43,593 bases of DNA from positions 1 through 43,593 of the forward strand of contig CAWHHI010000002.1 of NCBI GenBank assembly GCA_963829055.1, given 5' to 3'. This DNA is from an uncultured Gemmatimonadaceae bacterium. Its GTDB lineage: Bacteria > Gemmatimonadota > Gemmatimonadetes > Gemmatimonadales > Gemmatimonadaceae. Shown here in pieces: positions 9,581-34,216 of the stretch. A program made the translations under genes and the position numbers. The notes below the pieces were generated by a model. The model worked only from the letters and a program-made list of their open reading frames with translations, had not been told where the DNA came from and made no database searches. The first letter of the stretch is position 1, and each line of letters starts with the position of its first letter.

Positions 9581-9922
9581 ATCGTCGCGCCGGGGTCGGT
9601 GGGAACTACGATTTTGCGGATCGACACTGCGAAACTACCGGATACGGCTTTGCATTCCCGGCATCTTGCGCGGGCCCGGTGGGAACGGCGATTTCGCGGA
9701 TGAAACGGAAGAATCAGGATACGTTCCCGATAAGTCCCGGCTCCGTAGCGCAACGAGCCGGGAACTTTGGGAACGGCCGCTCGGGACGTTTCATCTCCCG
9801 AGCGGCCGTTCCTCTTTCATTCAGGCCGCGGCGAGAGCCAGCGTCGAATGCAAAGCCGTATCCGGCCGTTTTCCGTGTCGGATCCGCAAAATCGTAGTTC
9901 CCACCGACCCCGGCGCGATGAT
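9581..9922. repeat. Long palindromic element, family A, copy 1 (MITE/REPIN-like)
   Basis: Arms 9581-9657 / 9846-9922 include a perfect 38-bp and a perfect 20-bp inverted match. Internal degenerate third arm at ~9668-9720 and internal hairpin GGAACGGCCGCTCGGGA...TCCCGAGCGGCCGTTCC. Confidence 0.9.
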
Positions 9923-10025
9923 CTGTGAATCGCGGGTCCGCGAAAATCGAGGTACGGAAAACACCCGACATCCCTACAGGGAATCCATTCTAGGCGGCGA
10001 CAACGCAACATCGTATCGAGCAACC

Positions 10026-11138
10026 ATGCCGACCACGCCTATCGCCCCCAAAAAATCGCGCCCGTTCCTTCGTCTCCTCCCGGACTGGGAGAGCCGCATC
10101 AATGGGCTACGCGTCCTCACCGGAAACACGCCGCTCCTCGCCATCGAATGCGAGGTCCACGGGCGCCCGCGCACCGTGTACGCCAAGGCCGAGAACCTGA
10201 ACTTCACCGGCTCGATCAAGGACCGGATGGCACTCCACATCATCCGGCGCGCCTACGAGACCGGGAAGCTTCAACCCGGAGGCCTGATCATCGAGGCCAC
10301 CAGCGGGAACACCGGCATCTCCTTCGCCGCCTTCGGCCGCGCCCTCGGACATCCAGTGACCATCTTCATGCCCGACTGGATGAGCGAGGAGCGAAAGGCG
10401 CTCATCCGGAGCTTCGGCGCGACCGTGCGCCTCGTGTCCGCTGCGGAAGGCGGTTTCCTGGGGAGCATCAGACTGGCCGAGGAACTGGCGAACGAGACTC
10501 CAGACGCGTTCCTGCCGCGACAGTTCGCGAACGAGCAGAACGTCGAAGCGCACGAGACGAGCACCGGACCCGAGCTCTGGTCCCAGATGCGCTGGCAGGG
10601 ACTCACGCCCGACGCGTTCGTCGCCGGAGTCGGTACCGGCGGGACCATCATGGGAGTCGGCCGCTTTCTGCGGCAGGTGAACCCGGCGGTCGGGATCTAC
10701 CCCGTCGAACCCGCGAACTCGCCGACCCTCAGCACCGGCCACAAAGTCGGCAAGCATCGCATCCAGGGAATTTCCGACGAATTCATCCCGCCTATCGTCG
10801 ATCTCACGGCGCTCAATCACATCATCGCGGTCGACGACGGCGACGCCATTCTCATGGCCCAGAAGCTCGCCGCCGAGGTCGGGCTCGGGGTCGGAATCTC
10901 CTCGGGCGCGAACTTCCTCGCCGCGCTCGACGTGCAGCGGCGGATCGGAACAGACTCGGTCGTGGTCACCGTGTTTCCCGACAGCAACAAGAAGTATCTG
11001 TCCACCGGCCTGCTGTCCTACGAGCCGGCGAAGCCCGGGCACATGTCGCCGCACGTGCGCGTCCTCGGGTTCCGCGCGCTGAGCCGCGTCTGCGGATCAT
11101 GCACCGATCCGACCCCTCTCGCACTCGGCCAGGGATAG
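10026..11138 (+). CDS. cysK: PLP-dependent cysteine synthase family protein
   Basis: [14 protein letters not shown] (PLP lysine), [28 protein letters not shown]. The ORF extension upstream of 10026 runs through repeat family A and is not credible. Confidence 0.9.
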
Positions 11139-11163
11139 ACGCAAGCGACGCAGTGACAGAGGG

Positions 11164-11207
11164 TTGACGCCCGCCTTGACGTTGCTTCACAAGGCCACGT
11201 CTACCTT
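11164..11207 (+). promoter_or_regulatory. Tandem TTGACG repeat operator plus putative -10 upstream of the efflux operon
   Basis: TTGACGCCCGCCTTGACG (11164-11181), then 20 nt, then TACCTT (11202-11207). A near-identical layout occurs at 21489-21532. Confidence 0.65.
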
Positions 11208-11272
11208 GACCGCCGTTAGGATCGACCTCCCCAGCAGGTCGGTCGCTCCCGATCACTCAATCGGCGGTCACC

Positions 11273-12691
11273 ATGTTGAATTCTGCTTTGGCGCATCCGG
11301 CGCGCCTCGCATTCGTTTTCTGGTTTTTCTGTTTCGCGCTCACCATTCCTGCTTCGGCCGGCATCGCGCAGCAGGCCGCCGTAAAGAACGTCACCCTCCC
11401 GCTCACACTCGCCGACGCCTGGGCCAGAGCCGAAGCGAAGAGCGATCAACTCACCATCGCCGGCGCGCGCGAGGAGCAGGCTCGGGGTAGTGCACTCGAG
11501 TCGGGCAGCCTCCGCCGCCCGCGACTGTCCGCGTTCTCATCGTACGACCGTACGCTCCAGAGTGAGTTCGAAGGAGTCACGGGTTTCGCCCCGGATTCCA
11601 CGACATCCTCGAGCGAAGACTCTGCCGAGATTCCGTTCGGCAGCGCTCACACCTATCGCGCCGGGCTGACCGCGTCCTACACGGTCTTCTCCGGCGGACG
11701 CTTCCTCGCCCAGACCCGCGCCGCCGCGAGCAGCCGTCGCGCAGCGGAGCTCGGGTTCGTCTCGACCCGCGCCCAGGTACGCCTCGACGTCACCGAGGCC
11801 TACTACGACGCGATGCTCGCCGATCGCCTCCATCGGATCGCCGAGTGGACGCTCGAACAGGCCGACAGCACGTACCACCGGATGACGCTCATGACCGGCG
11901 TGGGTCGCGCGCCGGAGTTCGACCTCGTCCGCGCCAAGGCATCACGCGATCGGCAGCGCCCGGTGGTCATACAGCGCGAGGCCGATCGAGACATCGCGAT
12001 GCTTCGCCTGCGCCAACTGCTGCATGTTCCGGCTACCGCGGAGCTCACGCTCCCGACGGACATTGTCGCGGCACCGGCAGACCGGCCAGGCGCGCCTTCT
12101 ATAGAAAGTGCGTCGAGAGAAAGTGCGTCGAGCCGCACCGCCGTCCGCGAAGCCGCGGAGTCTGTCGCCCGGGGCGAGCAGCTCGTGCTCGCGTCCGAGG
12201 CCGGTCGGTTACCGGCCGTCAGCCTCACCTCCACCTACGAGCGCGTCGCCTACCCGCTTCGGGGGAACCCGACGTGGAAGGAGTCACGCGCGAACTGGAC
12301 GCTCGGTGCTCGCGTCGATCTACCAATCCTGACGGGCGGGCACCAGAGTGGCAGCGATGCCGTAGCACACGCCGAGCTCGATGCCGCCCGCGCTCGGCTC
12401 CGCCAGACGGAGCAGCTCGCGGAGCTCGACACGCGCTCGTCGATGGCGCGCCTCGGGGCGGCAGAGGCGGCGTTCGAGGCGAGCGAGGCGAGCGTCGAGG
12501 AAGCCTCTCGCGCCTACTCGATCGCGATGCTGCGCTTTCACGAGGGCGTTTCCATCCAGCTCGAACTGACCGACGCACGCCTGCTGCTCGAGCAGGCGCG
12601 TGCGGACCAGGCACGTGCGGCGCGCGATCTCTCGGTCGCACGCGTCCGCGCTGCTCTGCTCACCGACCTGCCGTTAGGCAGCGGCCGGTGA
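11273..12691 (+). CDS. TolC-family outer membrane efflux protein
   Basis: Signal peptide, two OEP-like repeats (VTEAYYDAMLA; RFHEGVSIQLELTDAR), first gene of a tripartite efflux operon. Confidence 0.9.
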   Translation: MLNSALAHPARLAFVFWFFCFALTIPASAGIAQQAAVKNVTLPLTLADAWARAEAKSDQLTIAGAREEQARGSALESGSLRRPRLSAFSSYDRTLQSEFEGVTGFAPDSTTSSSEDSAEIPFGSAHTYRAGLTASYTVFSGGRFLAQTRAAASSRRAAELGFVSTRAQVRLDVTEAYYDAMLADRLHRIAEWTLEQADSTYHRMTLMTGVGRAPEFDLVRAKASRDRQRPVVIQREADRDIAMLRLRQLLHVPATAELTLPTDIVAAPADRPGAPSIESASRESASSRTAVREAAESVARGEQLVLASEAGRLPAVSLTSTYERVAYPLRGNPTWKESRANWTLGARVDLPILTGGHQSGSDAVAHAELDAARARLRQTEQLAELDTRSSMARLGAAEAAFEASEASVEEASRAYSIAMLRFHEGVSIQLELTDARLLLEQARADQARAARDLSVARVRAALLTDLPLGSGR

Positions 12692-12694
12692 GGA

Positions 12695-12802
12695 TGTCAT
12701 CCCGAGGAGCGTCAGCGACGAGGGACCTTCTGTGCAGTACTCGTGGCCAGACTGGCTACGATGACGTCACAGCAAGGTCCCTCGCTGCCGCTCGGGATGA
12801 CA
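12695..12802. repeat. REP-like hairpin (family B) inside the efflux operon
   Basis: TGTCATCCCGAG...GAGGGACCTT ... AAGGTCCCTC...CTCGGGATGACA inverted arms. Confidence 0.85.
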
Positions 12803-12866
12803 CATGGCTGGCGCTCGGGTGCCAGTCATTTCCACCAGTACGAACTCTTACCTAACGAGTCACACC

Positions 12867-14000
12867 ATGAGACCTACATATAAAACACCGATCGCCGCAG
12901 GCAGCCTGATCGCCGCGCTGACCTTCGCGGTGCAAGGGTGCGGCCGCAACGCCGCCGCAGCGAGTCCGCCTGCGGCACCCGTCGTGACCCTCGTCGCCGA
13001 GGACGTCGCGACGGTCGAGAGCCGAGAGCTGGCCACAGGCCCGATCATCGCCGGCACGCTGACGGCGCGCACGCACGCGACCATTCGCGCCGAAGTCGGC
13101 GGAACGGTCGTCGCGATGTTCGCCGATCGCGGCATGACCGTCGCCGCAGGCGCACGCCTGCTCCGCATCGAGGACCGCGCCATTCGCGATGCCCAGACGT
13201 CCGCGGCATTCGACGCCGCGACCGAGGAAGGAGCGCTCTTCCTCGCGGCACGCCGCCTAACGCGCTCCGAGGCGCTGCTGGCCGGTGGCGCGATCTCGAG
13301 CGAAGAGGTCGAGGACGTACGCCACGCGCTCGCTACCGCGCAGTCGAAGCTGGTGGCCGCCCATGCCCGGCTCAGTGTCGCAACGAACACGCTCGAGCGC
13401 ACCGTCGTCCGCGCGCCATTCGCCGGCGTCGTGAGCGCTCGGCCCGTGAACACGGGCGACGTCGTCGAGTCGGGTGCGGTGCTGTTCGAGGTGCTCGATC
13501 CGACGACCATGTATGTCGAGAGCGCGGTACCGTCGGCTGACCTCGCGATGATACACGTTGGTGCGCCGGTCGCTTTCACGGTGAGCGGATACCCTGACCG
13601 GACCTTCAAGGGCAGGATCGAGCGCGTGAACCCGGCGGCCGATCCGAACACACGTCAGGTGCCGGTGTTCGTCGCGATTCAGAACACTGACCGGACGCTC
13701 GTCGCGGGCCTGTTCGCCGAGGGGCACGTGGCGCCGAGCACCGGCCCCGCGCTCATCGTACCAGGTGCGGCCGTGGAGCGCACTGGCGGCGCGGCGGCGG
13801 TCGTTCGCCTCACCGGCGGACGCATCGAGCGTCGTCAGGTCGAGACGGGACGCCAGGACGGCGACGGCACGCTCGTCGAGATCCGCTCCGGCCTCACGTT
13901 AGGCGACACCGTACTGCTTGGCGTATCGCGGTCACTTCCTACGGGAACGGCGGCGCGTGTTGCCGGCGGCAAGACTGTCACGACTCCCACCGTTCGCTGA
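12867..14000 (+). CDS. RND efflux periplasmic adaptor (MFP), probable lipoprotein
   Basis: AVQGC lipobox-like signal, IRAEVGG, VRAPFAGVV, TFKGRIERVNPAADPNTRQV. Confidence 0.92.
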   Translation: MRPTYKTPIAAGSLIAALTFAVQGCGRNAAAASPPAAPVVTLVAEDVATVESRELATGPIIAGTLTARTHATIRAEVGGTVVAMFADRGMTVAAGARLLRIEDRAIRDAQTSAAFDAATEEGALFLAARRLTRSEALLAGGAISSEEVEDVRHALATAQSKLVAAHARLSVATNTLERTVVRAPFAGVVSARPVNTGDVVESGAVLFEVLDPTTMYVESAVPSADLAMIHVGAPVAFTVSGYPDRTFKGRIERVNPAADPNTRQVPVFVAIQNTDRTLVAGLFAEGHVAPSTGPALIVPGAAVERTGGAAAVVRLTGGRIERRQVETGRQDGDGTLVEIRSGLTLGDTVLLGVSRSLPTGTAARVAGGKTVTTPTVR

Positions 14001-14010
14001 GGATCACTCC

Positions 14011-17000
14011 GTGTTCATCTCCGATTTCGCCATCAAGCGACCAGTCGTCACGGTCGCGACGATGCTAGCCATAGCCGGGTTCGGCGCGTTCGCGCTGGCC
14101 GGCCTCAAGACCGACGAACTGCCTGATGTGAAGTTCCCCGTGGTCGGCGTCACGCTCGTGTACCCGGGCGCGTCGCCCGAGGGCGTCGAGCGCGAGGTGC
14201 TCGACCCCATCGAAGACCGCATCGCCGGCATCTCCGGTGTCGACAAGCTGGAGTCGACGGTGCGCGACGGCGTCGCGCAGATCGCCGTGTACTTCGACTT
14301 CGACAAGGACGTACAGACCGGGTCGCAGGAAGTGCGCGATGCGATCGCCGAGATTCGCGGCGATCTGCCACTCGAGATGGAGGAGCCGACCATCATGCAC
14401 TTCGACCCGGCGGACGCGCCGGTGATGTCGCTGACGCTCACGTCCACGAGCCTGGATGCGGCGCGACTCACGCGTGTTGCCGACCCGGGACTCACTCGCG
14501 CGCTGCTTGGCGTGCGCGGTGTGGCCCACGTGACGCTGGCCGGTGGACGCGAGCGCGAGCTCACCGTCGCGCTCGAGCCGGCGGCCATGCGCGCCCTGAG
14601 CGTCAGCGTGGCTGATATCGTGTCGGCGCTCCAGTCACAGAACCTCGCGACGCCCGTTGGCCACGTCATCGGCAGGCGGGACGAACGCAGCATCCGGTTC
14701 CGCGGCCGTCTTGCCGATCAACAGGCATTCGAGGCGGTGGTCGTCAGCCGCCGCGGCACTCAACTCGTTAGGCTCGGCGAAGTCGCCAAAATAATTGACG
14801 GCGCCGAGGAGGCTCGTTCGCTGGCGATGTTCAACGCCGAGCCGGCGCTTGGGCTCGACATCATCAAGGCCCACGGCTACAGCACGACGGCGGTGAACGA
14901 AGCGATTCACGCCGAGCTCGCGAGATTGCGCCCCACGCTGCCGGCTGGAACGCGCCTCGAGGTCGTGCAGGATGCGGGCGAGCGCGTGGCGGCGTCGGTG
15001 CACAGCGTCCAGCGCGCGTTGCTCGAGGGCGCTGTACTCACCGTGCTCGTCGTGTTCCTCTTCCTCAACTCGTGGCGCTCGACCGTCATCACCGGTCTCG
15101 CGCTCCCGATCTCGGTCCTCGCCGCCTTCGTAGCCGTGTACGCGTTCGGCTTCACCCTCAACATGATGACGCTGCTCGGCCTCTCGCTGGCGATCGGCAT
15201 CCTGATCGACGACGCCATCGTCGTGCGCGAGAACATCGTCAGGCACATCGAGCTCGGCAGCGATCACGAGACGGCGGCCCGAATCGGCACCGCCGAGATC
15301 GGCCTCGCGGTCGCCGCGACCACGCTGTCGATCGTCGCCGTGTTCGCTCCGATCGCGTTCATGGGCGGCATCGCGGGCCAGTGGTTCAAGCCGTTCGCGC
15401 TGACCATGGCGTCGTCGGTGCTGGTATCGCTGTTCATCTCGTTCTCGCTCGACCCGATGCTCTCGGCGCACTGGCCCGACCCGCACACACCCGAGCACCG
15501 CAAGGCGTGGATCACGCGGAAGCTCGATCGCTTCAACCAGTGGTTCGATCGTCTGGCGGACCGCTACCATGACGTCCTGGCGTGGGCGCTGGATCACCGG
15601 CTCGCGATGGCCGGCATCGCCGTCGGCTCACTCGTCCTGGCGATCGGGCTGCAGGCGGCCATTGGCGGAACGGACTTCATTCCGAGCACCGACCGCAGCG
15701 AGATCTCGATCGACGTCGATGCGCCGGCTGGCTCGAATCTGGAGTACACGACGCAACGTGCCGAGCACGCGGTCCGCGTGGCGCGCGCGCACGCTGAAGT
15801 GGCGTACGCGTACACGACCGTCGGCGGTGGCGGCGGTGCAATCGACAAGGCGTTGATCTACGTGAAGCTGGTGCCGCGCGACAAGCGCAGTGCGAGCCAG
15901 GACGAGATTGGTCGTCGCATCCGTCTCGAGCTCGCGCAGACCTCCGGCGCCGAGTACTCGGTGTACTCGTCAGGCAACGGCAACTTCAAGCAGATTCAAC
16001 TTCAGCTCCGTGGTCGCGACGCGCGTACGCTTACGGCCCTGGCTCAGCGCGTTGCGACCGAGGTGCGCGCCGTGCCGGGTGCCGTGGACGTCAGTCTCTC
16101 GACCAAGGGCGAGAAGCCCGAGCTCCAGGTGGATCTGGACCGTGGCCTCGCCGCCACGTTAGGCCTGTCGGCCGCGGACGTCGCGCAGGCGATCCGGCCG
16201 GCGTTCGCCGGCGTCGATGCCGGCGACTGGGTGGATCCCGACGGCGAGACGCGAAACGTGATGGTGCGGCTCACCGACGACGCGCGACGTGGCGCGACGA
16301 GCCTGGCGCAGCTGCCGCTCATCGTGGCCGATGAGTCTGGCGCCATTCAGCCGATCCCGCTCGGTCAGGTCGCGGCTATCACCGAGGGCGTGGGGCCAGC
16401 GCAGATCAATCACCTCGACCGCGATCGACTCATCAACATCCAGGCGAACGTCGACGGTCGTCCGCTTGGTGATGTGATGAAGGGGATCGACGAGCGGCTC
16501 GCGACAATCACCCTCCCGGCAGGATATCGCATCACGAAGGGCGGCGATGCCGCCGACCAGGTCGAGGTGTTCGGCCGGATCTTCTCGGCGCTCGGGATCG
16601 CGGTGCTGCTCATGTACCTCGTGCTCGTGATGCAGTTCGGGTCGTTCCTGGATCCGTTCGCGATTCTCCTGTCGCTGCCGTTGTCGCTGATCGGTGTAGT
16701 CGGCGGGCTGTTGGTGACGGGCGATTCGCTCAACCTGTTGAGCCTCATCGGCGTGATCCTGCTCATGGGCATCGTCGCCAAGAACGCGATCCTGCTGGTG
16801 GACTTCGCGAAGCATCGTCGGGCGCAGGGCTCGACGCTGCGCGTGGCGCTGATCGAGGCCGGCCGTGTGCGGCTGCGTCCGATTCTGATGACGACGTTCG
16901 CGCTCGTCGCCGGGATGATTCCGGTCGCGATCGGCGGTGGGGAAGGCGGCGACTTCTACGCGCCGTTAGGCAGAGCGGTCATCGGCGGCACGCTGACGTC

Positions 17001-17139
17001 GACGCTGCTCACGCTGCTCGTGGTGCCGACGTTCTACGAGGTGCTCGAGGAGACGAAGGAGCGCGCTCGGGGATGGATGGCCGGGTTGCGAACACGCGTG
17101 GGTTCATCACACATCGCGCCGATGGAGGCCGGTGACTGA
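14011..17139 (+). CDS. RND efflux permease (AcrB/AcrD/AcrF, HAE1 type)
   Basis: GTG start, [46 protein letters not shown]. About 1040 aa. Confidence 0.95.
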
Positions 17140-17141
17140 TT

Positions 17142-17218
17142 GTCATTCCGAGCGGAGGCTCGGCATCGAGCCGATCTGGCCACGGACATCTCGAAGTCAT
17201 CACGCCGCTCGGAATGAC
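17142..17218. repeat. REP-like hairpin (family B) between convergent genes; possible bidirectional terminator
   Basis: Perfect 14-bp arms GTCATTCCGAGCGG / CCGCTCGGAATGAC. Confidence 0.85.
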
Positions 17219-20200
17219 TAACGCTTCAACGCCTCCAGCCTTTGCCTCGCGGTAGCCAGTCGCGGAGCAAAGGCTGGATCTGCTTTGCTCCACGCGCGAG
17301 CCACAACGTCATAGTGCGCTGCAGCGCTGTCGCGAGCGGCCGCGCCCGGCATGGCGTCCCACGCCTGCGCGAGCGACTCGTGAATCTCGGCGCGCGTGAC
17401 ATAGAAGTTCGACGCCTCGAGCGATCCCCGCAGCGCCGGTTGCAGCACCACGATCGCCTCACTCGGTCGCTGCTGACGCAGTAGTGCTCTGGCGAGCGTC
17501 AGATTCGTTCGCGTGTATCCAAGGTTCCACGAGTAGATCGCGCGTCTGAGCTCAGCGATCGCCGCATCGTCCTGACCGCGAGAGACGAACAGCAGTCCAC
17601 GGACATGATGGTGGAGGCGGCGGTCCCGTTCGTAGCCGCTTCGCGCGCCCGATGTCGCCACACTGTCGGCACGCGCCGCCAATCCGACGGTGTCGCGGCC
17701 AGCCGCGAGCGCGTTTGCCGCCTGTGTCATCGCCCACGCGGTCGATCGTCCCAGCTGTGATGGCATCTCCGCATCGCTCGTCCAGCGCCCGATCGAGTCG
17801 AAGAGCGCTGCCGCTTCCGCAAACCGTCCCATCTCGAACAGCACCTGGGCCTCCATCACAGTCTGTGTTGGAGCCGCGTTGCGAGGTGTTCCCGGGGTGC
17901 GAGGAGAAATCGCCTCTACCGCCACCCGAAACTCCTTCGCGGTAGCCAACGCCTCGGCGAGCCGACCCTGCTGGCGGTAGCTGAGGGTGAGATACCAGAG
18001 CCCTTCGCGCTTCCTGTGGGGATTGCCGCTCTCGATCCACTCGCGAAGCCCACGGTCGGCATCGTCGTACGCACCGCGTGTAGATCTGGTGCTCCTCGAG
18101 CACGGGCGACTCGCTGGTCTCCGAACGTGACGGATCGAACGACGCTTCACGCTGTAACGCGGCAAGCGCCTCCGCCGCGCGGCCGCGTTGCTCCAGGACT
18201 TCGGCGAGGACGTGCCAGGGCACCGACGATTTCGGCTGGAGACGGATCCAGCGCCGCAGTTCCCGCTCCGCTGCGGGGAGCGAATCGGCGAGCTGATACG
18301 CCGAGACGATCTCGCGAAGCGCGTCGCACGCGTTGCACAGCGCACGTGCACCGGTCAGGGCGAGTGAGTCCATCGCCACCACTCGATTGAGCGGGGCGAG
18401 GGCACTGAGGAACTCACCGGCGCTGATGAGGCTCGCGCCGGTGAAGAAATAGCCTTCCACCTCGTCGGGATACCGAACGAGCAACGTGTCCGCAAGCGCG
18501 CGGAGCGCCGGCGACGACGTGATGACATGCGCTTGCCGCGCCAGAATCGTTAGGCGCTCGCGATCGGTGGTGCGTGTCGCCAGTCGGGCGGCACGCGCGA
18601 ATCGCGCGAGGGACACGTCCCGGCTCTCCCACACCGAGAGCGCACTGTAGTACGCCGCCATGGCGAACGTGCTGTCGATCGCCAGTGCCGCCTCGAACAG
18701 TCGCTCCGCACCGCGCTTGTCGTTCTCGTAATAGGTGCGGAGCCCCTGCTCGTAGAGGCGATACGCCGCCTCCGACTTGGTAGTGACGTCCGCGACTGAG
18801 CCGACCGGAGTCGCCTGCCCGAAGTCGATCGCGAGACGCGCGGTGCCGCTGTCGGCGAGCTCGAAGAGCGTCGCGCCGGTCACCGAATGCGCCTGGCGCA
18901 AGCTGCCTGTCGCCAGCTCCACACGGCGCAGATCGAGTCGCATGCCGCCGTCGGCAAGCGTGTAGAGCGCTCCGTCGAGGAGCTCCGTCGCTCCGGCCCG
19001 CCGAGCAGCGGCGACAATGGCCGCCGCGGATGTGTCACGGTCTCCGTTTTGACTCGCCAGCTCGTACATCCGCGCGGTGCTCACGACCCGCATGCGTCCG
19101 ACGCGCCCGAGATTCGTCGCCAGCATGTCGGTGAGCGGCTTGGCCAGCTCGGACGATTTGTCGTCTCTGTAGTCGTTGATGCGCCCCAGCGCCACGACCG
19201 GGATTGCGTCACCGGACTCGCCTCCGGCCGCCGACCGAGACGGCATGCGAACGAGTCCCGTCTGGACCGTGATCACTATGGCGAGCGCCGCGATGCCTAT
19301 CGTGGCGATCGCGGTCCCGACCCGACCCTGCCACAGCTGGCTGCGCGATCGTAGCGCCGGCGCGGGCGCTTGCTGCTCCGCGCGCGCCAGGTGATACGGC
19401 AACAGGCTTCGCTCGGCCGTCGCGACCATGTCCCGCCTAACGAGCACATCCGCCGCGCGGGTATGGAACGCGCGCCGCTTCGTCGCCGGAACGAGCGCGA
19501 GCACCGCTCGCGCGACGAGCGGCGACGTGAACTCGAATCGGCCCGGCTGGGTGGGCGATTCGCGCAGCACCCGCCGGTCGACCAGTTCCACGAATGCAGC
19601 CTCGGCCTCATCCGGCGGAACTTCCGCCACTTCCTCGACGACGATCGGCTCGGTCGGACCATCGAGAACGGCCATCGCCCCCGCGATCGTTACGGCCGCC
19701 GGCGCCAGGCGATCCAGTCGCGCTTTCATACGATCGCGAACGGCGGCCGGCAGCGGCAGCGGACGTCCCGCGAGCGCCGGCGACACGCGCCAGTTTCCGT
19801 CCGCATCCAACGTCAACAGGTGATCATCGACGAGCGACGCGACGATGGCCGAAATGTCGTGCGGCAGCCCGCTGCCTTCGCGCACCAACCGGCCGGCAAG
19901 CGCATGGCGTTCCTGCGGCGGGAGCGACACCATCGAACCGACCATCGCTTCCACGTCCGCAGGACCGAGCGCGTGAAGCCACATCCGCCGCAAGCCACGC
20001 GTCTCGAGCAGCGTACCGAGTTGGACGACGGGCGCCCGTTGCGCCTCGTCCGCGGTCACGACGCACAACACTCGCCCCGTTAGGCGCGAGGCGAGCATCA
20101 CCAACAGCCGGCGACTCGCTTCGTCGGCGCCATCGACACCATCGAGATAGAGAAGGACGGGCTGCTCCTCGCTGATGGCGGCGAGCGTCTGCGCGATCCC

Positions 20201-21310
20201 GTCGCAAAGGGCGGTCTCGTCACCTCGCGGCGGCGGTAGGTGGCGGAACTCCATCGCGAGCGACGGAACGAGTCGAGCGATCTCCGCGAGCGCTTCCGGC
20301 GATGCGCCCGCGCTCCCATTCGCGTCCCGAACTCCCTCGAGCACGGAAGCCGCGGCGGAGTACGGAGTGCCGTCCCCCCATCCGCGCCCGCGCAGCACGA
20401 CCGCCTTCGCCCCGACGTGCGCCGCGAGCTCGTCGCCGAGGCGGGTCATTCCGCTCCCGGCTTCGGCTTCGATGAGGACGACGACCGGCGTGCCGTCACA
20501 GGCGGTGCGCCAGGCGCTGGTGAGCTCCTCGAATTCCAGCCCGCGTCCCACGAACTGCGGTGTGTGAACCGCCGCCGACCCCCGGCCGTGTCGCGCGATC
20601 TCCGCCTTGAGGTCATCGGCCAGCCCACCACCCAGCCGGAGGAACTCCGCAGACGGCTCGACGTCGAGTGTCGTCCGAATGCGCGTCGCGAACGCGGCGT
20701 GAACGGTCGCGGCCTCCGTCGCCCGGCCGCTCATTCGAAGCGCTTCGACCAGCCGGAGGTGCGCGGTCTCATCGAACTGGAGCGCACTCGCCCATCGCTC
20801 GGCCCACGTACAGGCCTCTACCCAGTCGCCGCGAATCTCCGCATCGCCGATCAGCCGCTGCATCGCGCCGCTGAGCTGCCGGTGAAGCGCGACCCGCTCG
20901 CCCTCGATCCAACGCCGGAACGCCTCGCCGCCAATGTCTTCGGATCCGTCGAAGAAGTCGCCCTTCCATCGTTCGACCGCGGATCGGAAGTCACCGCTGG
21001 CGACGTCCCGCTCGAAGCCGGCGATGTCGAGCTCCAGCCCAGTGCCGACGACGCGAACCGTTTCCGGATCGACCTCCAGATGTTCGCCGAGCGACTGCTT
21101 GAGCTCGAGCAGCGTCTGGCGCAGCGACTGCCGGGCGCGGTCCTCACCGCGTTCTCCCCAGAACAGCGTCGCCAGCTCGGTCCGGGATGCGGGACGGGGC
21201 GCGCGACGAGCGACGTAGCTCAGTAACGCCAGCGGTTTTCGGCGGAGGGGAGGCGGGACCCCTTCGTCGGCTTCGAGTCGAAGCTCACCGAGCGTCCGTA
21301 CGTGAAGCAC
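17218..21310 (-). CDS. SARP/BTAD-family transcriptional regulator: wHTH-BTAD, AAA/STAND-like domain, TM helix, TolB-N-like and TPR region; one apparent indel near 18075
   Basis: VLHVRTLGELRL...LATLFWGE...ARQSLRQTL, DETAHLRLVEALRMSG, FVGRGLEFEEL, hydrophobic TAIATIGIAALAIVITV, TTKSEAAYRLYEQG. AGGAG RBS before the GTG at 21310. The C-terminus continues in ORF 17218-18351. Confidence 0.85.
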
Positions 21311-22432: not shown

Positions 22433-22434
22433 CG

Positions 22435-22586
22435 GTCATTCCGAGCGGGGTCATTCCGAGCGAGCGACAGCGAGTCGAGGAATCGTGACTGTTCCGGTAG
22501 AGGGCCCCTCTACCGGGACATCGCAGATTCCTCGACTCCGCCGCTTCGCGGCTCCGCTCGGAATGACAACCTCCGCTCGGAATGAC
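22435..22586. repeat. Doubled REP-like hairpin (family B) between convergent genes
   Basis: Two GTCATTCCGAGCG on the left and two CGCTCGGAATGAC on the right. Inner GAGTCGAGGAATC / GATTCCTCGACTC and central CCGGTAGAGG-GCC-CCTCTACCGG. Confidence 0.9.
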
Positions 22587-22591
22587 AACGA

Positions 22592-25034
22592 CTAATCCGT
22601 CTTCAGCGCGATGAGTGGATCGACCCGCGTCGCCGCACGGGCGGGAAGCCAGCACGCCAGCGCCGCCACTATGATCAGCAACCCCGACACGGATCCGACC
22701 GTGAGCGGGTCCGTCGGGCTCACCCCGTACAACACGGCACCTAACGCGCGCGTCGCCACCACGGAAATTCCGAGCCCAGCCAGCACGCCAGCGCCACTCA
22801 GCGCCAACCCTCGGCGCAGGATCATGCGCCTCACGTCGCTGGCCCGGGCGCCCAGCGCGAGACGGATGCCGATCTCCTGTGTGCGCTGCCGTACCAATGC
22901 GGCAATCACACCATAGACGCCCACGGCGGCGAGCACGAGCGCGATCACGGCGAACGTAGCGAGCACCATTGCGTTGAACCGCGGTCGCGCCAGCGATGTC
23001 GTTAGGCGCTGGCGTACGCTCGCGACCCTGGTGACCAACGCCGCCGGCTCGATCTCGGTCACGGCTCGCCTCACGTCGCCAAGTGTCATGGAGTGTCCCG
23101 GTCGGCCGCGCACGACGACGAGCGTGAGCGGCGGCAGGTTGGCGTTCTGCGCCCACGGCGTGTAGACGACCGGTCGCGGGGACGTGAGCTCGCGATACCG
23201 CACGTCGCCCGCGATGCCCACGACCGTGAACCACGGGCCGGGCGCATCAGCGTGCCCGAACTTGAGTCGTTTGCCGACGGCATCCGCCCCCGGCCACGCA
23301 CGCCGCGCCAGCGCCGCACTCACGACGACCACGGGCGAGCTCCCCGCTCTGTCGTCGGACGTGATGCCCCGCCCTCGCTGAATGGGAATTCCCATCGTCG
23401 AGAAGTAGCTCGGCAACACGGCCTGAAGGTCGAGCGGCGGGTTCGCCGCTGCGTCGCGCGCCGTTTGCGTTTCTGCCGTATAAAAGGCGTCCCATCCATT
23501 GTTGCCCGAGAACGGCGGCAGCAGAACGACGGTCGCCGACGAGTTTCCGGGCGAGCGCCGCGAGCCGTTCGGTCACGCGATCGTAGAACGCCAGCAGGCG
23601 CGGTCGACTCGTCGCGATCGTCTGCGGCAGCTCGACTTCTATGGTACTGAGCTCCGTCGTCGCGAATCCCATGTCGAGGCTCTGGAGCTTCTCCAGCGTT
23701 CTCACCAGAAGCCCCGCTCCGACCAGGACCACCATCGCGAGCGCAACCTGGGCGGCGGCGAGCGCGCTTCCGCGCCGCCCAGCGACTCGGTCGGCAGAGC
23801 CGCCACGGCCGCCCGAGCGAAGGACGCGACTCAAGTCATCGACACGAGACAGCCCGATGGCAGGCCACAGGCTGAACACGAGCGCGCTCAGCACGACCAA
23901 CGCCGCCGCCCCACCAAGCACCATCGGATCCACGCGAATCGCATCGATCCTGGGTAGTTCCACCGGCGCGAGTGCGACGAGCAGATGCACGAGCCAGGTG
24001 GCGATCAGCACTCCGGCAACGCCCCCCAGCGCCGCGAGGACCAGCCCTTCGGTGAAGAGTTGGCGCACGAGGCGCCATTCGCCGGCACCGATCGCGACGC
24101 GAACGGCGAACTCGCGGCGTCGCGCAACGCCGCGGACGACGACGAGGTTCGCGACGTTGACGTTCGCAATGAGCAGGAGAAGCGCGACCGCACCTCCGAG
24201 CGCGAGCAACGTCGGCCTGACGTCGCCGGTGATGAGCGACTCGATCGGGCGTACCGTTCCACGAACGTCGCGCGGCTCACCAGGCTCGTATGCCTTGTGC
24301 GCCAGAAAATCCGCGAGCTCCGCGCGCGCCTGCTCGACTGTGGCGTCGCGCCGGAGTCGGCCGACGAGGTTGAACGGCCACTGACCGCCACCGCTGGCCG
24401 CGTCAGGCATCACGGTGAGCACGGGTACCCACATCTCGGTGGTGCCTGGGAAAGCGAATCCGGAGGGCACGACTCCCACGATCCGGAAGGGATCGCCGGT
24501 CTGCGCGGACCGGATGGTGTGTCCAACGACCGCGGCGTCCCCTCCGAATTCGCGACGCCACAGCGCGTAGCTGATCACACCGACGCGCGGTCCCCCGGGG
24601 ACATCGTCGCTCGCCTCCAGCATCCGGCCGATCAGCGGGCGTGCACCCAAAACGCGGAATAAGTCGCCGGACGCGACACCGGTCGTGATCGAGAGGACGC
24701 GGTCGCCGTCGCGCATGGTCACGGGCCAGGAGCCGTCGTATTGCGCGCCGGCAACGGCCTCGAGTGCACGCGTCTGCGCCGCGAACGCACGCAGATCTTT
24801 CACCGAAAACGGCACCAGCGCCTCGTTCCCTACCAGCTGCTCCTTCCGCAGCACGACGACGCGCGACTGATCTCGAATGGGAAGCGGCTGGAGGAGCACG
24901 CCGTTGATCACACCGAACACCGCCGTCGCCGCACCGATGCCAACGGCGAGAGTCACGACGACAGAGAGGGTGAACAGCCCGTTCCGGCGCAGCGATCGAA
25001 CCGCGAAGGCGAGGTCGTGACCTGGGGTTGCCAT
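22592..25034 (-). CDS. Duplicated ABC-type permease (ADOP / MacB-FtsX-like), with an apparent indel near 23545
   Basis: HDLAFAVRSLRR...TLAVGIGAATAVF, LLIANVNVANL...RRREFAVRVAIGA, QRTQEIGIRLALGA, PARAATRVDPLIALKTD. Confidence 0.88.
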
Positions 25035-25259
25035 CTGGCTGATTACCAAAGTCGGAGTAGTCTCGCTATTAAAGCAGATAATGTTGCAAATCGGGCTGCT
25101 TAAATGAAGAAAACATGCAACACAACGGTATTATCGCGAGGTTCACTCCAAAGTCCGTGTAGAGTAGCAACTCTTAAGAACCGAGTAATTTCATAATGAA
25201 GCGGCTAAGTGTTAAATTGTTGCATTCGTGGGCTGGTGCTGGACTCTAAATCCGAAATA

Positions 25260-26735
25260 ATGTCATCGCGCTTTCCTCAGGTTTTCCTTTCCACTGCCAA
25301 GACAGCCGTTGCAGTCTCGAGGGCTGCCAAGAAGGGCGAGGTACGGAAGATCGGGCCACGGCTATATACCTCGCAGCTGTCGGGTGACGCGATAGAGGTG
25401 ATTCGCGCGAACCGTTGGCAGGTGGTCGCGCTCTACGCGCCCGGGGGCGTAGTCGGGTATCGGACGGCGATCGAAGGAAAGCCAACCGCCGACGGAACTG
25501 TATTTCTTTCAGGCCCGACGTTGCGGCGCATCGATCTTCCAGGACTTCGCGTTAGGGTGGTTCCGGGGCCTGATGCGCTCGAGGGAGACCGCGAGTTCAT
25601 TGGCGGACTTCGCTTCGCCTCGAGAGCGCGCGCACTTCTCGAATCGTTGCGGCCTTCCCGAGCACGAGCAACCGAAGCCCGGGGGTTATCGCGAGATACG
25701 GTCGAACAGATCCTCGATAGAGAGTTGGAACTTGGCAACGAGGCCACGCTGAATGCCCTACGTGACCAGGCGAGTAGTCTCGCGTCGCGACTCGGTGCCG
25801 AGCGAGAGTTCGAGGTACTCGACGGAATCATCGGGGCCCTGCTCGGAAGCCGAAACATCCCGGTTACAGCGGCTGGCGCCCGGGGCCGCCTCGCGGAGCC
25901 GCCGTACGACGCAAAGCGACTGACGCTGTTCGAGGAACTCCATGCTGCGCTCGTGGCGACCCCGTTACCTAACCGCGCGGACCCGGCCGCGGCGGGATCA
26001 GCCTTCCGCCACCTGGCTTTCCTCGACGCCTACTTCTCGAACTATATAGAAGGCACAGAATTCGAGCTCGACGAGGCTCGCGCACTGGTGTTCGAGGGTC
26101 GAGTCCTGCCAGACCGTCCGGCGGACTCGCATGATGTCCTAGGTACGTTCGCGTTGGTCGGGAATCGAGATTTCCTCGGCGTCGGCATCAGCGATCTCCC
26201 CGATGGTGCCGCGTTCATCGCGCGCCTCAAACAGACTCACGCCGAGATCATGCGTGGGCGCCCAGAACACGGTCCGGGGAGGTTCAAGGAGACCGTCAAT
26301 CGCGCGGGAAACTCGGTGTTCGTACATCCCGACGCCGTCACAGGGACGCTACTCCACGGGTTTACGATCGCGAGGTCGCTCGAGCGACCCTTTGCCCGAG
26401 CCGCAGCGCTGATGTTTGTCATCTCGGAGGTTCACCCGTTCGCCGATGGCAACGGACGGGTCGCACGAGTACTCATGAACGCCGAGCTGTTCGCGGCTCG
26501 CCAATGTCGCATCCTGATACCGACCGTCTTTCGGGACGACTACCTGACGGCGCTCCGGACCATGACGCGACAAGGCCACGCCGATCCTCTCGTGCAGGCG
26601 CTCGAACTGGCCCAGCGCGTGACAGCGGCAATCGACTACGCGGACCTCGATCACGCGATTGCGGCACTCGCGAACGTGAACGCCTTCGAGGAGCCGTCGA
26701 CGGGCACCAGGTTGCGCGCTCCGAATCCCCGTTAA
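25260..26735 (+). CDS. Fic-domain protein with an N-terminal wHTH-like region
   Basis: Canonical [12 protein letters not shown]ic motif and upstream SNYIEG (S/T)xxxE(G/N) inhibitory motif. Preceded by an AT-rich region. Confidence 0.9.
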
Positions 26736-26778
26736 ATCGCGCCTATATTCCGGATCCACACTTTCAAATCGCCTGATC

Positions 26779-28476
26779 GTGAGTCACGACACCGCTCCAT
26801 CCGCCGCGCACAAGGACTTCATCCGAGACATGGTCGCCGACGACGTGGCGACCAACCGCTTCGGCCGACCCGTCGCCACGCGCTTTCCGCCCGAGCCGAA
26901 CGGCTTTCCGCACATCGGGCACGTGAAGTCCGTGTGCCTGAACTTCGGGATCGCGAAGGAGTTCGGCGGTCGCTGCAACCTGCGCTTCGACGACACGAAT
27001 CCGTTCACCGAAGACGTGAAGTACGTCGAGGCCATCAAGCGTGACGTCGAATGGCTCGGCTTCACGTGGGACGCCGAGCTGTACGCGAGCGACTACTTCG
27101 AGCAGCTGTACGAGATCGCCGAAGATCTCGTGAAGCGAGGCAAGGCGTACGTCGATTCGCAGACCGAAGAGGAGATTCGCCTCAACCGCGGCACCGTCAC
27201 GACGCCGGGCGTGCCGGGCCCGTATCGCGACCGCTCGCCCGACGAGAACCTCGACCTCCTGCGTCGTATGAAGGCGGGCGAGTTCCCCGACGGCGCGCAC
27301 GTGCTGCGCGCGAAGATCGACCTCGCGCACCCGAACATGATCATGCGCGACCCGTTGCTGCTGCGGATCCGCCATGCGCCGCACTACCGGCGCGGCAATG
27401 CGTGGTGTCTCTACCCGCTGTACGATTTCGCGCACGGCCTGTCCGACGCGATCGAAGGCATCACGCACTCGCTCTGCACGCTCGAGTTCAAGGACAACAA
27501 GCGACATCTACGACTGGCTCGTGCACGAGGCGGGCTTCGAGCGTCCGCCCGAGCAGATGGAGTTCGCGCGCCTCGAAGCTGGACTACACGGTGCTCAGCA
27601 AGCGGAAGCTGCTCAAGCTCGTGAACGAGGGACGCGTGAGCGGGTGGGACGACCCGCGCATGCCGACGATCTCGGGCATGCGTCGTCGCGGCGTGACACC
27701 CGAGGGGCTGCGCAACTTCGCCGAAGCGATCGGCGTCGCGCGCAAGCCGGCGCGGACGGAGCTCGCGACGTTCGAGCACCACATCCGCGACGACCTCAAC
27801 ATGCGCGTGCCGCGCGTCATGGCGGTGGTCAACCCGCTCAAGGTCGTGCTCACGAACTACCCGGAAGATCAGGTCGACGAGCTCGAGGCGTCGTACTACC
27901 CGCACGACGTTCCGCTCACCGGCTCGCGCATGGTCCCGTTTTCGCGGGAGCTGTGGATCGAGCGGGACGACTTCATGGAGGACCCGCCCAAGAAGTTCTT
28001 CAGGCTCGCTCCGGGCCGGGAAGTGCGACTAAGGTACGGCTACTTCATCACCTGCACAGACGTCATCAAGGATGCGTCAGGCAACGTGGTGGAGCTCCAC
28101 TGCACGTACGACCCGGCGACGCGTGGCGGTGACGCCCCCGACGGCCGCAAGGTCCAGGGAACGATCCACTGGGTTTCGGCCCGGCACGCGCTCGACGCCG
28201 AGGTACGGCTCTACGACCGGCTGTTCACGGTCCCCGACCCGGAGGCGGTAGACGACGGTCAGGAATTCACTGCGCACGCTCAACCCGGACTCGCTGGTTG
28301 TCGTTCCCGGTGCTAAGATCGAGCCGAGCGTGGCGAAGGATCCCATCGGCACGCGGTATCAGTTCGAGCGCACCGGCTACTTCATTAGCGATACGATAGA
28401 TTCGACGCCGGACCGGCTCGTGTTCAATCGAACGGTGACGCTCCGGGACAGTTGGGCAAAGGTGAAGGGAAAGTAG
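26779..28476 (+). CDS. glnS: Glutamine--tRNA ligase, with apparent indels near 27500, 27575 and 28275
   Basis: [66 protein letters not shown]...[14 protein letters not shown] at 28474-28476. Confidence 0.95.
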
Positions 28477-28547
28477 TAGGCCCGTCACGAGCATGAACGC
28501 GAAGGCAAACGTGCGCGAGCGGGTCGGGCTTGTTCCGTGGTGCTCGC

Positions 28548-30281
28548 ATGTCGCTCTGTCTTCGCGGGAGTCACCGTCCCATTGCACTCGTCGCCGGCGT
28601 TGCCGCGTTAGGCTTCGGCCTGGCGGCGTCGGCGCTCACGGCGCCGCTCTCGGCCCAGGTCGTTCGCGGCACTGTCACCGAACGGGCCACTAACACGCCC
28701 GTCTCCGGCGTCCTCCTCGCGGTGCTCGATGGTCGGGACACCGTCGTCGTGCAGGCGTTGAGCAGCGAGGGGGGCGGTTTCGAGATTCGCCTTCCAGGGC
28801 CCGGGACGTATTCGCTCGACGTCAAACGCATTGGCGTCAAGCGCGTCCGACTCGCGCCCTTCACGGTCACCGAGGGCGAGTCGCGGCTGCTCGACATTTC
28901 CGTCGAACCGGTGCCCGCAGTCCTGAGCTCCATCAACATCACGGGCCGCACGTCGTGCGTTCGCAACCCGCAGACGAACGCGCGCACCGCCGCGTTATGG
29001 GAAGACGCCCGCGCCGCGCTCACCGCCGCGGTGATCACGCGCGGTCTCGTCGGCGCCGCCGACACGGTCGTCCGCTTCGAGCGGAAGCTCGACGTGCGCG
29101 ACTGGCACGTGCTCTACGAGACGCGCCGGAAGGTGTCCGCGTCCTGCGACCATCCGTTCCGCAGCCTCCCGGCGGAAGTGCTTTCCGTGGGCGGCTACAT
29201 CACGGTGAACCAGGACGGCTCGACGGACTACTACGCTCCCGACGCGGAAGTCCTGCTCTCCGATACCTTCCTCGCGGATCACTGTTTCAAGATCGTGCCC
29301 GCGGGGGAGTACGACCACGTCGGGCAGATCGGGCTCGCGTTCCAGCCGATCCCCGAGCGGAAGAAGCCCGACATCAAGGGCGTGCTCTGGATGGACGAGA
29401 AGTCGGCGGAGCTGCGCACCCTCGAGTTCAACTACACCTGGCTGCCTAACGACGTCCGCCCCGCGGATTTCGGTGGCACGGTGTCGTTCTTCCGGATGCC
29501 CGGCGGCCGGTGGATCGTCCGGAGCTGGAAGATCCGGATGCCGGAGTTCGGCAACCAGCGCACCGTGCAGACCGCGGATGGATCCTACGTTTCCGTCGGC
29601 CGCAGCAGCTCGCCGGTGGTGGCCCGCATCTCCGAAGAAGGCGGCGCCGTCCCACTCTCCACGCTGATGGGCCAGGTCGGTCAGGTGCGCGGAACCGTCG
29701 TGATGGACACGATCACGAACAAACCAATCGCCGGAATCACCGTCGCGCTCGAAGGCACGGGCGACTCGACGACGACAGGAGTGGACGGCGGTTTCGAGTT
29801 GCCGTTCGTGCAGCCGGGCTCCTACACCATCGTGATCCGGCATGCAGTGCTCGATTCGTTAGGCATCCGCCACCTCGCGCGCACGGTGGAGGTCGACGCT
29901 GGCCAATCGGCCGCGCTGGCGCTGCGCTTTCCGACGAACCAGGAGCTCGCGGGCCGCCTGTGTGACAAGCCCGTGGACTTCGCACGCCACTCGGTCATCC
30001 GATTCCTGATTGTCGATCAGGCCGGTGTGCCATTGGCGAATACGCCGGCGGTGTTCTCTCGTGTGCCGATCGACTCCACCGGCAAACCAGTCGCGGACAG
30101 TGCTACCTCCTGGGACGTCAAGCTCGACGCTGGCGGCGGCTTCCTCGGCTGCGCGCTACGCGGGGATGAGATCGTGCGGATCGAGGCGGTGCCTGAATCC
30201 GGGACGCCGTGGGGAGAGACAGTCCGCCCGCGCGTGGGCCTCATCGGGTGGCACGTGGTGCGTATCGGTAAGCGGCGATAG
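28548..30281 (+). CDS. Secreted protein with carboxypeptidase-regulatory-like (prealbumin-fold) domains
   Basis: Signal peptide ending LSAQ, then VVRGTVTERATNTPVSG. YYAPDAEVLLSDTFLADHCF core. Second VRGTV...PGSYTI repeat. Confidence 0.75.
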   Translation: MSLCLRGSHRPIALVAGVAALGFGLAASALTAPLSAQVVRGTVTERATNTPVSGVLLAVLDGRDTVVVQALSSEGGGFEIRLPGPGTYSLDVKRIGVKRVRLAPFTVTEGESRLLDISVEPVPAVLSSINITGRTSCVRNPQTNARTAALWEDARAALTAAVITRGLVGAADTVVRFERKLDVRDWHVLYETRRKVSASCDHPFRSLPAEVLSVGGYITVNQDGSTDYYAPDAEVLLSDTFLADHCFKIVPAGEYDHVGQIGLAFQPIPERKKPDIKGVLWMDEKSAELRTLEFNYTWLPNDVRPADFGGTVSFFRMPGGRWIVRSWKIRMPEFGNQRTVQTADGSYVSVGRSSSPVVARISEEGGAVPLSTLMGQVGQVRGTVVMDTITNKPIAGITVALEGTGDSTTTGVDGGFELPFVQPGSYTIVIRHAVLDSLGIRHLARTVEVDAGQSAALALRFPTNQELAGRLCDKPVDFARHSVIRFLIVDQAGVPLANTPAVFSRVPIDSTGKPVADSATSWDVKLDAGGGFLGCALRGDEIVRIEAVPESGTPWGETVRPRVGLIGWHVVRIGKRR

Positions 30282-30315
30282 CCGTGGGGCGATTGTCGCG
30301 GATCTCGGACTGCCA

Positions 30316-30664
30316 GCATCATCGCGCCGGGGCCGGTGGGAACTACGATTGGGCGGATGACACGGAAAACGGCCGGATACGGCTTTGCATCGACGCATGG
30401 CTCTCGCGCGGGACCCGTGAGAATACGATGGGAACGGCCGCCCGGGAGACTCCTGCGTCCCGAGCGGCCGTTCCCGAAACAGTCCGGCCCGTTGCGCGAG
30501 GGGCGGTCCCGGACGCAGGTCTTATCCTGCTTCTTCCGCGTCATCCGCGAGATCGCCGTTCCCACTGGCCCGGCGCGATGACGCGTCGATGCAGAGCAGT
30601 ATCCGGCAGTTTCGCAGTACAGATCCGCCGAATCGTAGTTCTCACCGGCGCGGCGGAACGATGC
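30316..30664. repeat. Long palindromic element, family A, copy 2 (reverse orientation relative to copy 1)
   Basis: CGCGCCGGGGCCGGTGGGAACTACGATT...CCGGATACGGCTTTGCATCGACGC and its inverted partner, with the same internal hairpin and degenerate third arm. Homology may extend to ~30290-30690. Confidence 0.9.
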
Positions 30665-30706
30665 CAACAGCCACGGCTCCGCGGCTATCGCAACACTAGG
30701 ATCGCG

Positions 30707-33441
<2,735 letters not shown>

Positions 33442-33471
33442 CCCGGGTCGTCGTCGAGTGCCGTTGCCGAG

Positions 33472-33503
33472 TCCCCAGTTCCCGTTCCCGATTCCCAGTC
33501 CCG
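33472..33503. repeat. Short degenerate tandem repeat of TTCCC(A/G)-type units between padR and the permease
   Basis: TCCCCAGTTCCCGTTCCCGATTCCCAGTCCCG. Confidence 0.55.
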
Positions 33504-33839
33504 TCAGCCCATATCCAGCACGAGCGACACGGCGGTCGTGAGTGTCCGCCAGGCATCGGCTTCGAGCTGGAGCTGATTGCGACCGCTGCGCGTGAGCTCG
33601 TAGTACTTCGCGCGTCGATTGTTGTCCGACGCCCCCCACTCCGCCTTGATCCACCCGCGGCGCTCGAGGCGATGCAGGGCAGGGTACAGCGAGCCCTGGG
33701 GGATCTGCAGCATCGCCTTCGAGACGTCGCGAAGACGCTCGGAGATCGCCCACCCATGCATTGGCCCGAGCGAGATGGCCTTGAGGATGAGCAGGTCGAG
33801 CGTGCCCTGTGGGAGGTCGAGCTTTTCGTGGTCTGGCAT
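33504..33839 (-). CDS. PadR-family transcriptional regulator (type associated with ADOP permeases)
   Basis: LPQGTLDLLILKA...MHGWAI...QGSLYPALHRLERRGWI...SDNNRRAKYYELTRSG. Lies directly upstream of the permease. Confidence 0.93.
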   Translation of the reverse strand: MPDHEKLDLPQGTLDLLILKAISLGPMHGWAISERLRDVSKAMLQIPQGSLYPALHRLERRGWIKAEWGASDNNRRAKYYELTRSGRNQLQLEADAWRTLTTAVSLVLDMG

Positions 33840-33843
33840 GGTT

Positions 33844-33898
33844 CCCCTGTCACTTCTACAAGAAGATGATTGCGCGGATCCTGTAGAAGCGCAAGGGG
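33844..33898. promoter_or_regulatory. Putative PadR autoregulatory operator pair
   Basis: Two CCTGT-N7-ACAGG-like sites that together form an imperfect inverted repeat (CTTCTACA 33853-33860 / TGTAGAAG 33882-33889), overlapping the padR RBS. Confidence 0.5.
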
Positions 33899-33911
33899 AG
33901 TTCTGGTCCAG

Positions 33912-34216
33912 CGCGCCGGGGCCGGTGGGAACTACGATGACGCGGATTGCACGGAAAACGGCCGGATACGGCTGCATCGACGCTGGCTCATCACCGGACC
34001 TGAATAGGAGGCCGCTCGGGATGCGCGTCTCGAGCGCCTCGAGGAATCCTGGCTCGTTCGGGCGGAGTCGGGAGTCCGGAGCATCCGATCTACCGCGGCA
34101 TCGGCCGAATCGTCGATTCCTCCAGACTGCGCCTCGATCGATGCGGGTATGCAAAGCCGATCCGGCCGTTCTGCTGTCAATCCGCCCAATCGCAGTTCCC
34201 ACCGGCCCGGGCGCGA
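33912..34216. repeat. Long palindromic element, family A, copy 3 (diverged interior)
   Basis: CGCGCCGGGGCCGGTGGGAACTACGAT...CACGGAAAACGGCCGGATACGGCT on the left and ATGCAAAGCCGATCCGGCCGTT...GTTCCCACCGGCCCGGGCGCGA on the right. Confidence 0.85.

Follow-up and report, generated by a model that had tools for sequence, protein, structure and literature searches.

The stretch of DNA analysed here, referred to as the window, comprises 43,593 nucleotides of contig CAWHHI010000002.1 from an uncultured Gemmatimonadaceae bacterium (assembly GCA_963829055.1, named G000 in the coordinates below and 86% complete) and contains three copies of a palindromic repeat, here called family A. An earlier reading of the letters alone, the original prediction, had placed these palindromes at 9581-9922, 30316-30664 and 33912-34216, and all three were present at these positions, with truncated extra units just beyond the ends of copies 1 and 3. 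As had also been noted, two copies (1 and 3) lie between divergent genes; copy 2 lies between convergent ones. Copy 1 (9579-9924, + strand), delimited by genome BLAST and an arm profile, is a gene-less element consisting of a unit, a truncated unit, a core and an inverted unit. Its outer left unit (9579-9660, +) is about 80 bp long, carries GAT/GGAT words every 9-12 bp and has a short CCGGATACGGC stem at its end. It is followed by the truncated inner left unit (9666-9723, +; arm profile E 5e-7), a small hairpin within the core (GGCTC...GAGCC, 9739-9759), the central core hairpin (9770-9812), which is common to other arm families and whose loop occurs in two orientations genome-wide, and the inverted right unit (9838-9924, -; arm profile). 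The remnant of a further outer unit (GAT-N3-GCGGAC, motif at 9936-9941) occupies 9925-9951 (-), and this remnant motif is enriched beyond element ends (25/113 versus a background of 3.5%). Folded as DNA, copy 1 reached -142.5 kcal/mol (z -16.9 versus shuffles).

Copy 2 (30316-30664, -) shows the architecture of copy 1 reversed, with its central core hairpin at 30431-30474 and a remnant outer unit on its left (30290-30315, +; GCGGAT at 30298-30303). Alignment confirmed that copy 2 is the reverse complement of copy 1 from end to end, including the degenerate third unit and the central hairpin. Copy 3 (33905-34221, -) is built of two units flanking a degenerate core with extra inserted sequence, and a truncated extra unit follows at 34222-34245 (-; anchor at 34232-34243). 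The window additionally contains a sibling element (576-840) with CGCAGA-type arms around a core as in family A.

That three copies within the window would mean many in the genome was borne out. BLAST searches with the elements against the whole genome yielded 83 merged loci, and the arm profile gave 203 unit matches in 71 clusters, 62 of them with facing arms; one coreless facing pair was left out, giving 61 complete copies. Generally, 1-3 tandem units of about 80 bp are followed by a conserved hairpin core and 1-2 inverted units. When the 61 copies were oriented, two units-core-one unit was the arrangement of 33, two-and-two of 14, one-and-one of 10 and another one of 4. Mean identity was 80% among 27 canonical copies, and the coding score was low inside 59 of the 61 complete ones. 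Family A thus has terminal inverted repeats, with two inverted units round a spacer, and is non-coding, multi-copy and extragenic.

One family A arm pair, at G000:C16:79787-80321, encloses a reading frame of the GxxExxY family in place of the core, so that a form bearing an open reading frame does exist. The arms of this cassette are 55 bp long, 89% complementary and 411 bp apart, and they align with the first 55 bp of the units in the window. By profile the gene is a clear member of the family, matching TIGR04256 (E 9e-26, 90.6 bits versus a cut-off of 35) and PF13366 (E 3e-25, 89.3 versus a cut-off of 22). Two metagenome contigs with flanks about 98% identical contain an intact frame of 172 amino acids (aa), running from the left arm, where it begins, into the right arm, where it stops. 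The G000 cassette itself is about 88% identical to those of the two contigs, with the identity borders at the arms, and represents either an exchanged allele or a mixed-strain consensus. Family A arms were found at 5 of 80 metagenome loci of this protein's relatives, and in the 86% complete genome GxxExxY was the only gene found between such arms. Upstream of the cassette, at L010:1159-1274, a TTGAACATGTTCAA-like palindrome array stands at the start of a divergent TetR-like gene and probably represents the operators of that gene.

All 106 homologues of the GxxExxY protein share D77 and Q101, and conservation reaches at least 90% for E87 and K89 (E-x-K). A structure model with a predicted local distance difference test score (pLDDT) of 87 gave Cas4 SSO0001 (E 9e-5) and the Holliday junction resolvase Hjc (E 1e-3) as best Foldseek matches, and the top matches of a wider structural search were mostly PD-(D/E)XK-type nucleases with Z values of 7-8. 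The model supports a nuclease fold for the GxxExxY partner; a substrate is not implied by it. A sequence search of solved structures with GxxExxY yielded nothing meaningful. The ratio of nonsynonymous to synonymous substitution rates was 0.08-0.24 in 9 of 15 pairs, the other 6 being saturated, and the gene is under purifying selection. PDDEXK_3/GxxExxY (PF13366, TIGR04256) has been tabled as a family of unknown function with multiple transfers, and the passage concerned makes no mention of repeats (PMC3424549).

The genome possesses three GxxExxY genes (on C16, C20 and C7), each within different inverted arms. A profile of the core detected 94 sites, 59 of them in family A and 35 outside it; the latter comprise 22 with the CAGGAT arms of the C20 gene, about 4 with C7-like arms (read by eye) and 3 with CGCAGA arms. 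For the CGCAGA type, to which the element at 576-840 belongs, no GxxExxY gene with such arms was found in the 86% complete assembly. At three loci (G000:C6:136053-136548, C5:117162-117653 and C10:43719-44151) three arm types form concentric palindromes, in which CGCAGA arms enclose a second arm type, which encloses C7-type arms, which enclose the core. A congener's locus (L169) pairs a family A arm with a CAGGAT arm on the opposite side, and the unit stacks of family A lend themselves to interpretation as nesting of the same kind. The core stem is the best-conserved part of the elements, with a divergence of 0.008 and 0.047 on its two sides versus 0.08-0.11 in the units. Its loop was oriented one way in 36 of the 61 copies, inverted in 14 and otherwise arranged in 3; 8 were unmatched. 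On a tree built without the loop, orientation required 11 changes, at least 4 of them forced by well-supported branches; as this is close to the shuffled mean of 13.1, loop inversion recurs. The possibility that the core is a relic of the GxxExxY gene was also considered and dropped, as neither protein nor DNA similarity was found.

GxxExxY genes with family A arms were also found in the same neighbourhood in five congeners (G001-G005). G002-G004 have open frames; that of G001 is shifted close to its end, and in G005 the contig ends within the frame. The cassette occupies two positions, namely after the TetR gene in G000, G001 and G002 and on the far side of the block in G003 and G004; in G005 the downstream flank is common with the former position. 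This arrangement suggests that the gene has mostly been inherited in place, with one apparent local move. The arm pattern was detected in 7 and the core pattern in 5 of 41 genomes, all within this genus (these tallies include G013 as one zero row, and no claim depends on it). All 26 arm matches in a species-genome collection were labelled Gemmatimonadaceae, as were the named homologues. Searches of the respective collections yielded no match of the arms in viral contigs, of the element in plasmids or of the protein in phages. The inverted flanks of 26 of 46 GxxExxY loci from relatives scored above the 99th percentile of random inverted-flank scores; six loci had been left out of this test (one duplicate, one unpublished, one without a match and three at contig edges). 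Gene-less arms scored best versus the gene arms of their own dialect group in 102/102, 7/7, 21/21, 13/14 and 3/3 cases.

Orthologous sites in congeners were also compared. In G000, 425 bp separate the two genes flanking copy 2, as against 12-29 bp in four of the five congeners; the fifth is without synteny there. The site of copy 1 is empty in G002, the only one of the five congeners with the flanking genes, which has an element of its own on the other side of the gene. For copy 3, the two congeners that have the gene next to it show a rearranged site, which is uninformative. Read mapping gave contigs of relatives only, with no joint across an element, and showed neither empty sites nor expression. 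The run search brought up two RNA runs, each with 4% of the words.

It is very probable that the family A elements belong with the GxxExxY cassette. With less assurance, they are probably gene-less versions of this palindromic cassette that reach new intergenic sites by copying assisted by the predicted nuclease, the role of the latter being inferred. The best reading is that of a non-autonomous repeat family tied to a small predicted nuclease and analogous to two known systems, that is, the pairing of repetitive extragenic palindromic (REP) doublets forming hairpins with a REP-associated tyrosine transposase (REPIN-RAYT) and the Ssn-SRM system. Under such a scheme, the GxxExxY protein would attach to hairpin or cruciform DNA at the repeated GGAT words typical of its own arms and nick there; host repair synthesis would then copy or rebuild the element, in many cases into a repeat already present or around it. 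Such a route would account for the way units are stacked, for the Russian-doll composites of several arm types round one core and for the inverted loops. The three paralogues would each have an arm family of their own to serve, the core would be a shared and strongly conserved module, and the gene itself would stay almost fixed, like a RAYT.

Several observations weigh against this reading. Of the unit, the gene's arms correspond to no more than the first ~55 bp, and no trace of the gene is present in the core, so that the elements are not simple internal deletions of the cassette. As assembled, the C16 gene is frameshifted; since rpoB is also split over two frames and contigs of relatives lack the single extra bases in a gene of the window, the frameshift is likely to be an assembly indel. 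No strong inverted flanks were found at 20 of the 46 GxxExxY loci, and 5 of the 46 also pass in direct orientation. The gene-less arms of G003 and G004 score highest versus the gene of G000 instead of their own and were collected with a G000-derived pattern, and the dialect match may reflect plain shared ancestry of two or three lineages, a number that makes it weak. The species with empty sites are only about 70-87% identical, which renders insertion junctions unreadable. A Z value of 8 is near the level that the structural search tool warns can be common, and a match in fold gives no function. Finally, the RAYT, GIY-YIG and four-helix-bundle genes of this genome, each with repeats of their own, could act on family A in trans.

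A comparison with described systems places family A near several of them. In the Ssn system, the gene for a GIY-YIG nuclease is flanked by its own hairpin repeat, of which many gene-less copies exist, and a layout resembling that of mobile elements has been noted by the authors (PMC11893778). Family A resembles Ssn-SRM/NTS in its repeat-gene-repeat layout and its dispersed gene-less repeats. It differs in its partner, which belongs to TIGR04256/PF13366 with a PD-(D/E)XK fold, whereas that of Ssn-SRM, as described there, is a single-domain GIY-YIG protein; moreover, family A has arms of 55-80 bp that contribute to the reading frame, and its gene-less elements are arm-core-arm composites of 300-500 bp. 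The genome also holds a separate pair of Ssn-SRM-like layout, a short GIY-YIG gene flanked by CGTC-type REP sequences (G000:C3:952-1167, L216). REPINs are described as non-autonomous extragenic inverted doublets beside a near single-copy gene that keeps one neighbourhood per lineage (10.1101/2021.07.10.451892), with REP units given as 20-40 bp (PMC3733652). The likeness extends to the extragenic inverted doublets and the near single-copy partner in a stable neighbourhood, but compared with these accounts the partner of family A is not of HUH/Y1 type, a terminal GTAG/CGTC tag is lacking, the units measure about 80 bp, and one core is common to three paralogues with as many arm types.

Bacterial interspersed mosaic elements (BIMEs) are modular repeats with variable tandem units and nesting. 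[quoted passage not shown] Unlike them, it lacks a target-site duplication, is G+C-rich and stacks as its module the arm itself, on both sides of the core, and no insertion sequence (IS) with matching ends was found in the 86% complete genome. Family A fails a defining test of each of the three, REPIN-RAYT, Ssn-SRM and MITE/BOX. In the open literature, with supplements and subscription journals outside the scope, no description of a pairing between GxxExxY and palindromes was found, and nothing relevant emerged on Gemmatimonad repeats and intervening sequences. The elements are likely to be gene-less passengers of a little-described gene-plus-repeat system.

The alternative that survives best assumes that the nuclease recognises the repeats without moving them, cutting incoming or exposed single-stranded DNA (ssDNA) in an Ssn-like manner and tuning recombination or DNA uptake, with gene conversion, or a different enzyme that acts on the core or the nested CGTC-type REPs, being responsible for the spread of the repeats. 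A published precedent exists in the Ssn-NTS pair, for which a repeat-gene-repeat layout, ssDNA cleavage and modulated transformation have been described (PMC11893778). One best-conserved core common to several arm families is what would be expected if the core were the recognised part, and the copies have a star-like tree and a mosaic look. (A four-gamete count of 2607/2880 pairs also suggested mosaicism; inflated by alignment noise, it was not relied on.) We nevertheless consider this alternative rather unlikely, as the core arms were never found enclosing a gene, each arm type matches one GxxExxY paralogue, and the CGTC-type REP, with 955 motif hits in the genome, touches only 11 of the 71 family A clusters, mostly at the short stem of the unit.

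It is a good deal less probable that a role as structured RNA or as bidirectional terminator or stabiliser maintains the family, the arms round the gene being an incidental insertion. Family A is enriched in convergent gaps (21/57 versus 131/760 background windows, p 7e-4; gene strands were taken from a hexamer model made for the analysis, which left 4 of the 61 elements ambiguous), G-T mismatches exceed A-C mismatches in the arm stems (56:27), and the central stem is, as described above, highly conserved. The original prediction went further in this direction and took differences mirrored in both arms of a copy as compensatory changes that maintain pairing. The mirrored words that it quoted are present in the sequence, except that the pair of copy 2 contains one G/G mismatch. 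A permutation test covered the 51 of 61 elements with anchorable outer arms and showed left arms to resemble the right arm of their own copy no more than that of a different copy (39-nt identity, p=0.61; whole arm, p=0.85). The ranks of the own arm ranged from 1 to 51, the window copies ranking 2 (copy 1), 14 and 37, and one of six variable arm sites reached p=0.02, uncorrected. Helix-level tests on 27 aligned copies revealed no covariation in the arm stems (p 0.30, 1.0 and 0.77), and the covariation signal of the central hairpin stems from the loop inversion. Since a limited set of frequent variants recurs among the arms, matching words within one copy are to be expected; mirrored changes being no commoner than chance, the notion of compensatory arm changes had to be given up, which lessens the interest of family A as RNA. 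The window showed no Rfam match at gathering score, and 5 weak hairpin matches at copy 1 lie far below the cut-off. Between tandem genes, family A shows no bias in orientation (14:14). Together with the ragged ends, the variable number of units and a link between arm and gene that holds in six species and three paralogues, these findings argue against the RNA or terminator function, and the structured-RNA reading of the arms was not upheld. A promoter and terminator scan of the GxxExxY cassette detected one antisense consensus site and no terminator.

The signatures of conventional transposition were examined as well. No target-site duplication had been visible within the window, and genome-wide there was no excess of direct repeats (p 0.26 for 47 copies and p 0.69 for 44 copies). 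The GTAG on which the comparison with REPINs had been based is indeed present, but it lies internally, in only 57 of 102 outer arms, and a terminal GTAG/CGTC tag is absent. The single Y1/RAYT-type gene (PF01797; G000:C20:35020-35346, L085) has 23-bp inverted flanks of its own that are unrelated to family A, and it was rejected as partner. The original view of a non-autonomous, MITE/REPIN-like element is supported by about 60 extragenic copies, empty sites and a gene-bearing form, for which a search had been proposed; the partner is a PD-(D/E)XK protein of the GxxExxY family and not an HUH, RAYT or IS enzyme. That family A is simply a MITE or REPIN mobilised by the transposase of an IS or by this genome's RAYT is very improbable, for although terminal inverted repeats, many extragenic copies, empty sites and the presence of one Y1 transposase gene in a genome only 86% complete would fit it, the missing target-site duplication, the unrelated flanks of the Y1 gene, the internal and variable GTAG and GxxExxY as the sole gene found between family A arms do not.

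Inverted flank matches were in excess (4/52 versus 0.25 expected, p 0.002), and much of this overlaps truncated outer units. At two elements (G000:C16:801155-801539 and C4:350258-350659), about 20 bp of near-unique flank is mirrored on both sides (stretches at C16:801180 and C4:350283), which could be due to fold-back copying or to insertion into a hairpin.

If the preferred reading of gene-less copies of a GxxExxY cassette is taken further, the system might tentatively be placed alongside REPIN-RAYT and Ssn-SRM as a third class of replicators in bacteria that combine a gene with repeats. A PD-(D/E)XK nuclease of about 130-170 aa, partly encoded by the arms, would mobilise the elements via a hairpin intermediate without target duplication, and paralogue-specific arms would nest round one core with flip/flop loops. 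Each pair of paralogue and arm would then constitute a compact, orthogonal, structure-specific nuclease. GxxExxY is a widespread family with no known function, and in this genome it is represented by three paralogues, to each of which an arm sequence and a gene-less family correspond. These pairs offer a ready 3x3 specificity test, and it was testing of this kind that turned the GIY-YIG/NTS pairing into the Ssn nucleases. The reading would also explain dispersed palindromes without transposase or target duplication and show how several repeat systems build mosaics. The particular contribution of this genome consists of three paralogue-arm pairs round one core, the flip/flop of the loop and the negative covariation result.

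Some further observations concern neighbouring sequences. Genes at 30707-33753 of the window and rpoB on G000:C19 are split by single-base indels absent from the contigs of relatives, and the assembly probably carries long-read indel errors. CGTC-type REP sites occur in the window at 911-923, 7950-7962, 8167-8179, 12789-12801, 17142-17218 and 22435-22586. Another gene-in-palindrome system is represented by 11 loci with four-helix-bundle (TIGR02436) genes (12 matches), some of them between inverted heptamer arrays (L206-L215; G000:C3:398226-398787, C16:412457-413012 and C8:327606-328277). A further dispersed family of about 400 bp has inverted GCGCTTACACGCC ends and no recognised gene inside (G000:C3:78498, C4:771881, C5:150945, C6:155018, C7:49300, C20:749180 and others). 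Within the window, a lone 46-bp inverted repeat of a different sequence type (89% complementary, 30-nt loop) is located at 35980-36101. The octamer GCCTAACG has 24 sites in the window, and its GTTAGGC part is also found in the cores of elements of congeners (L222, L226 and L228).

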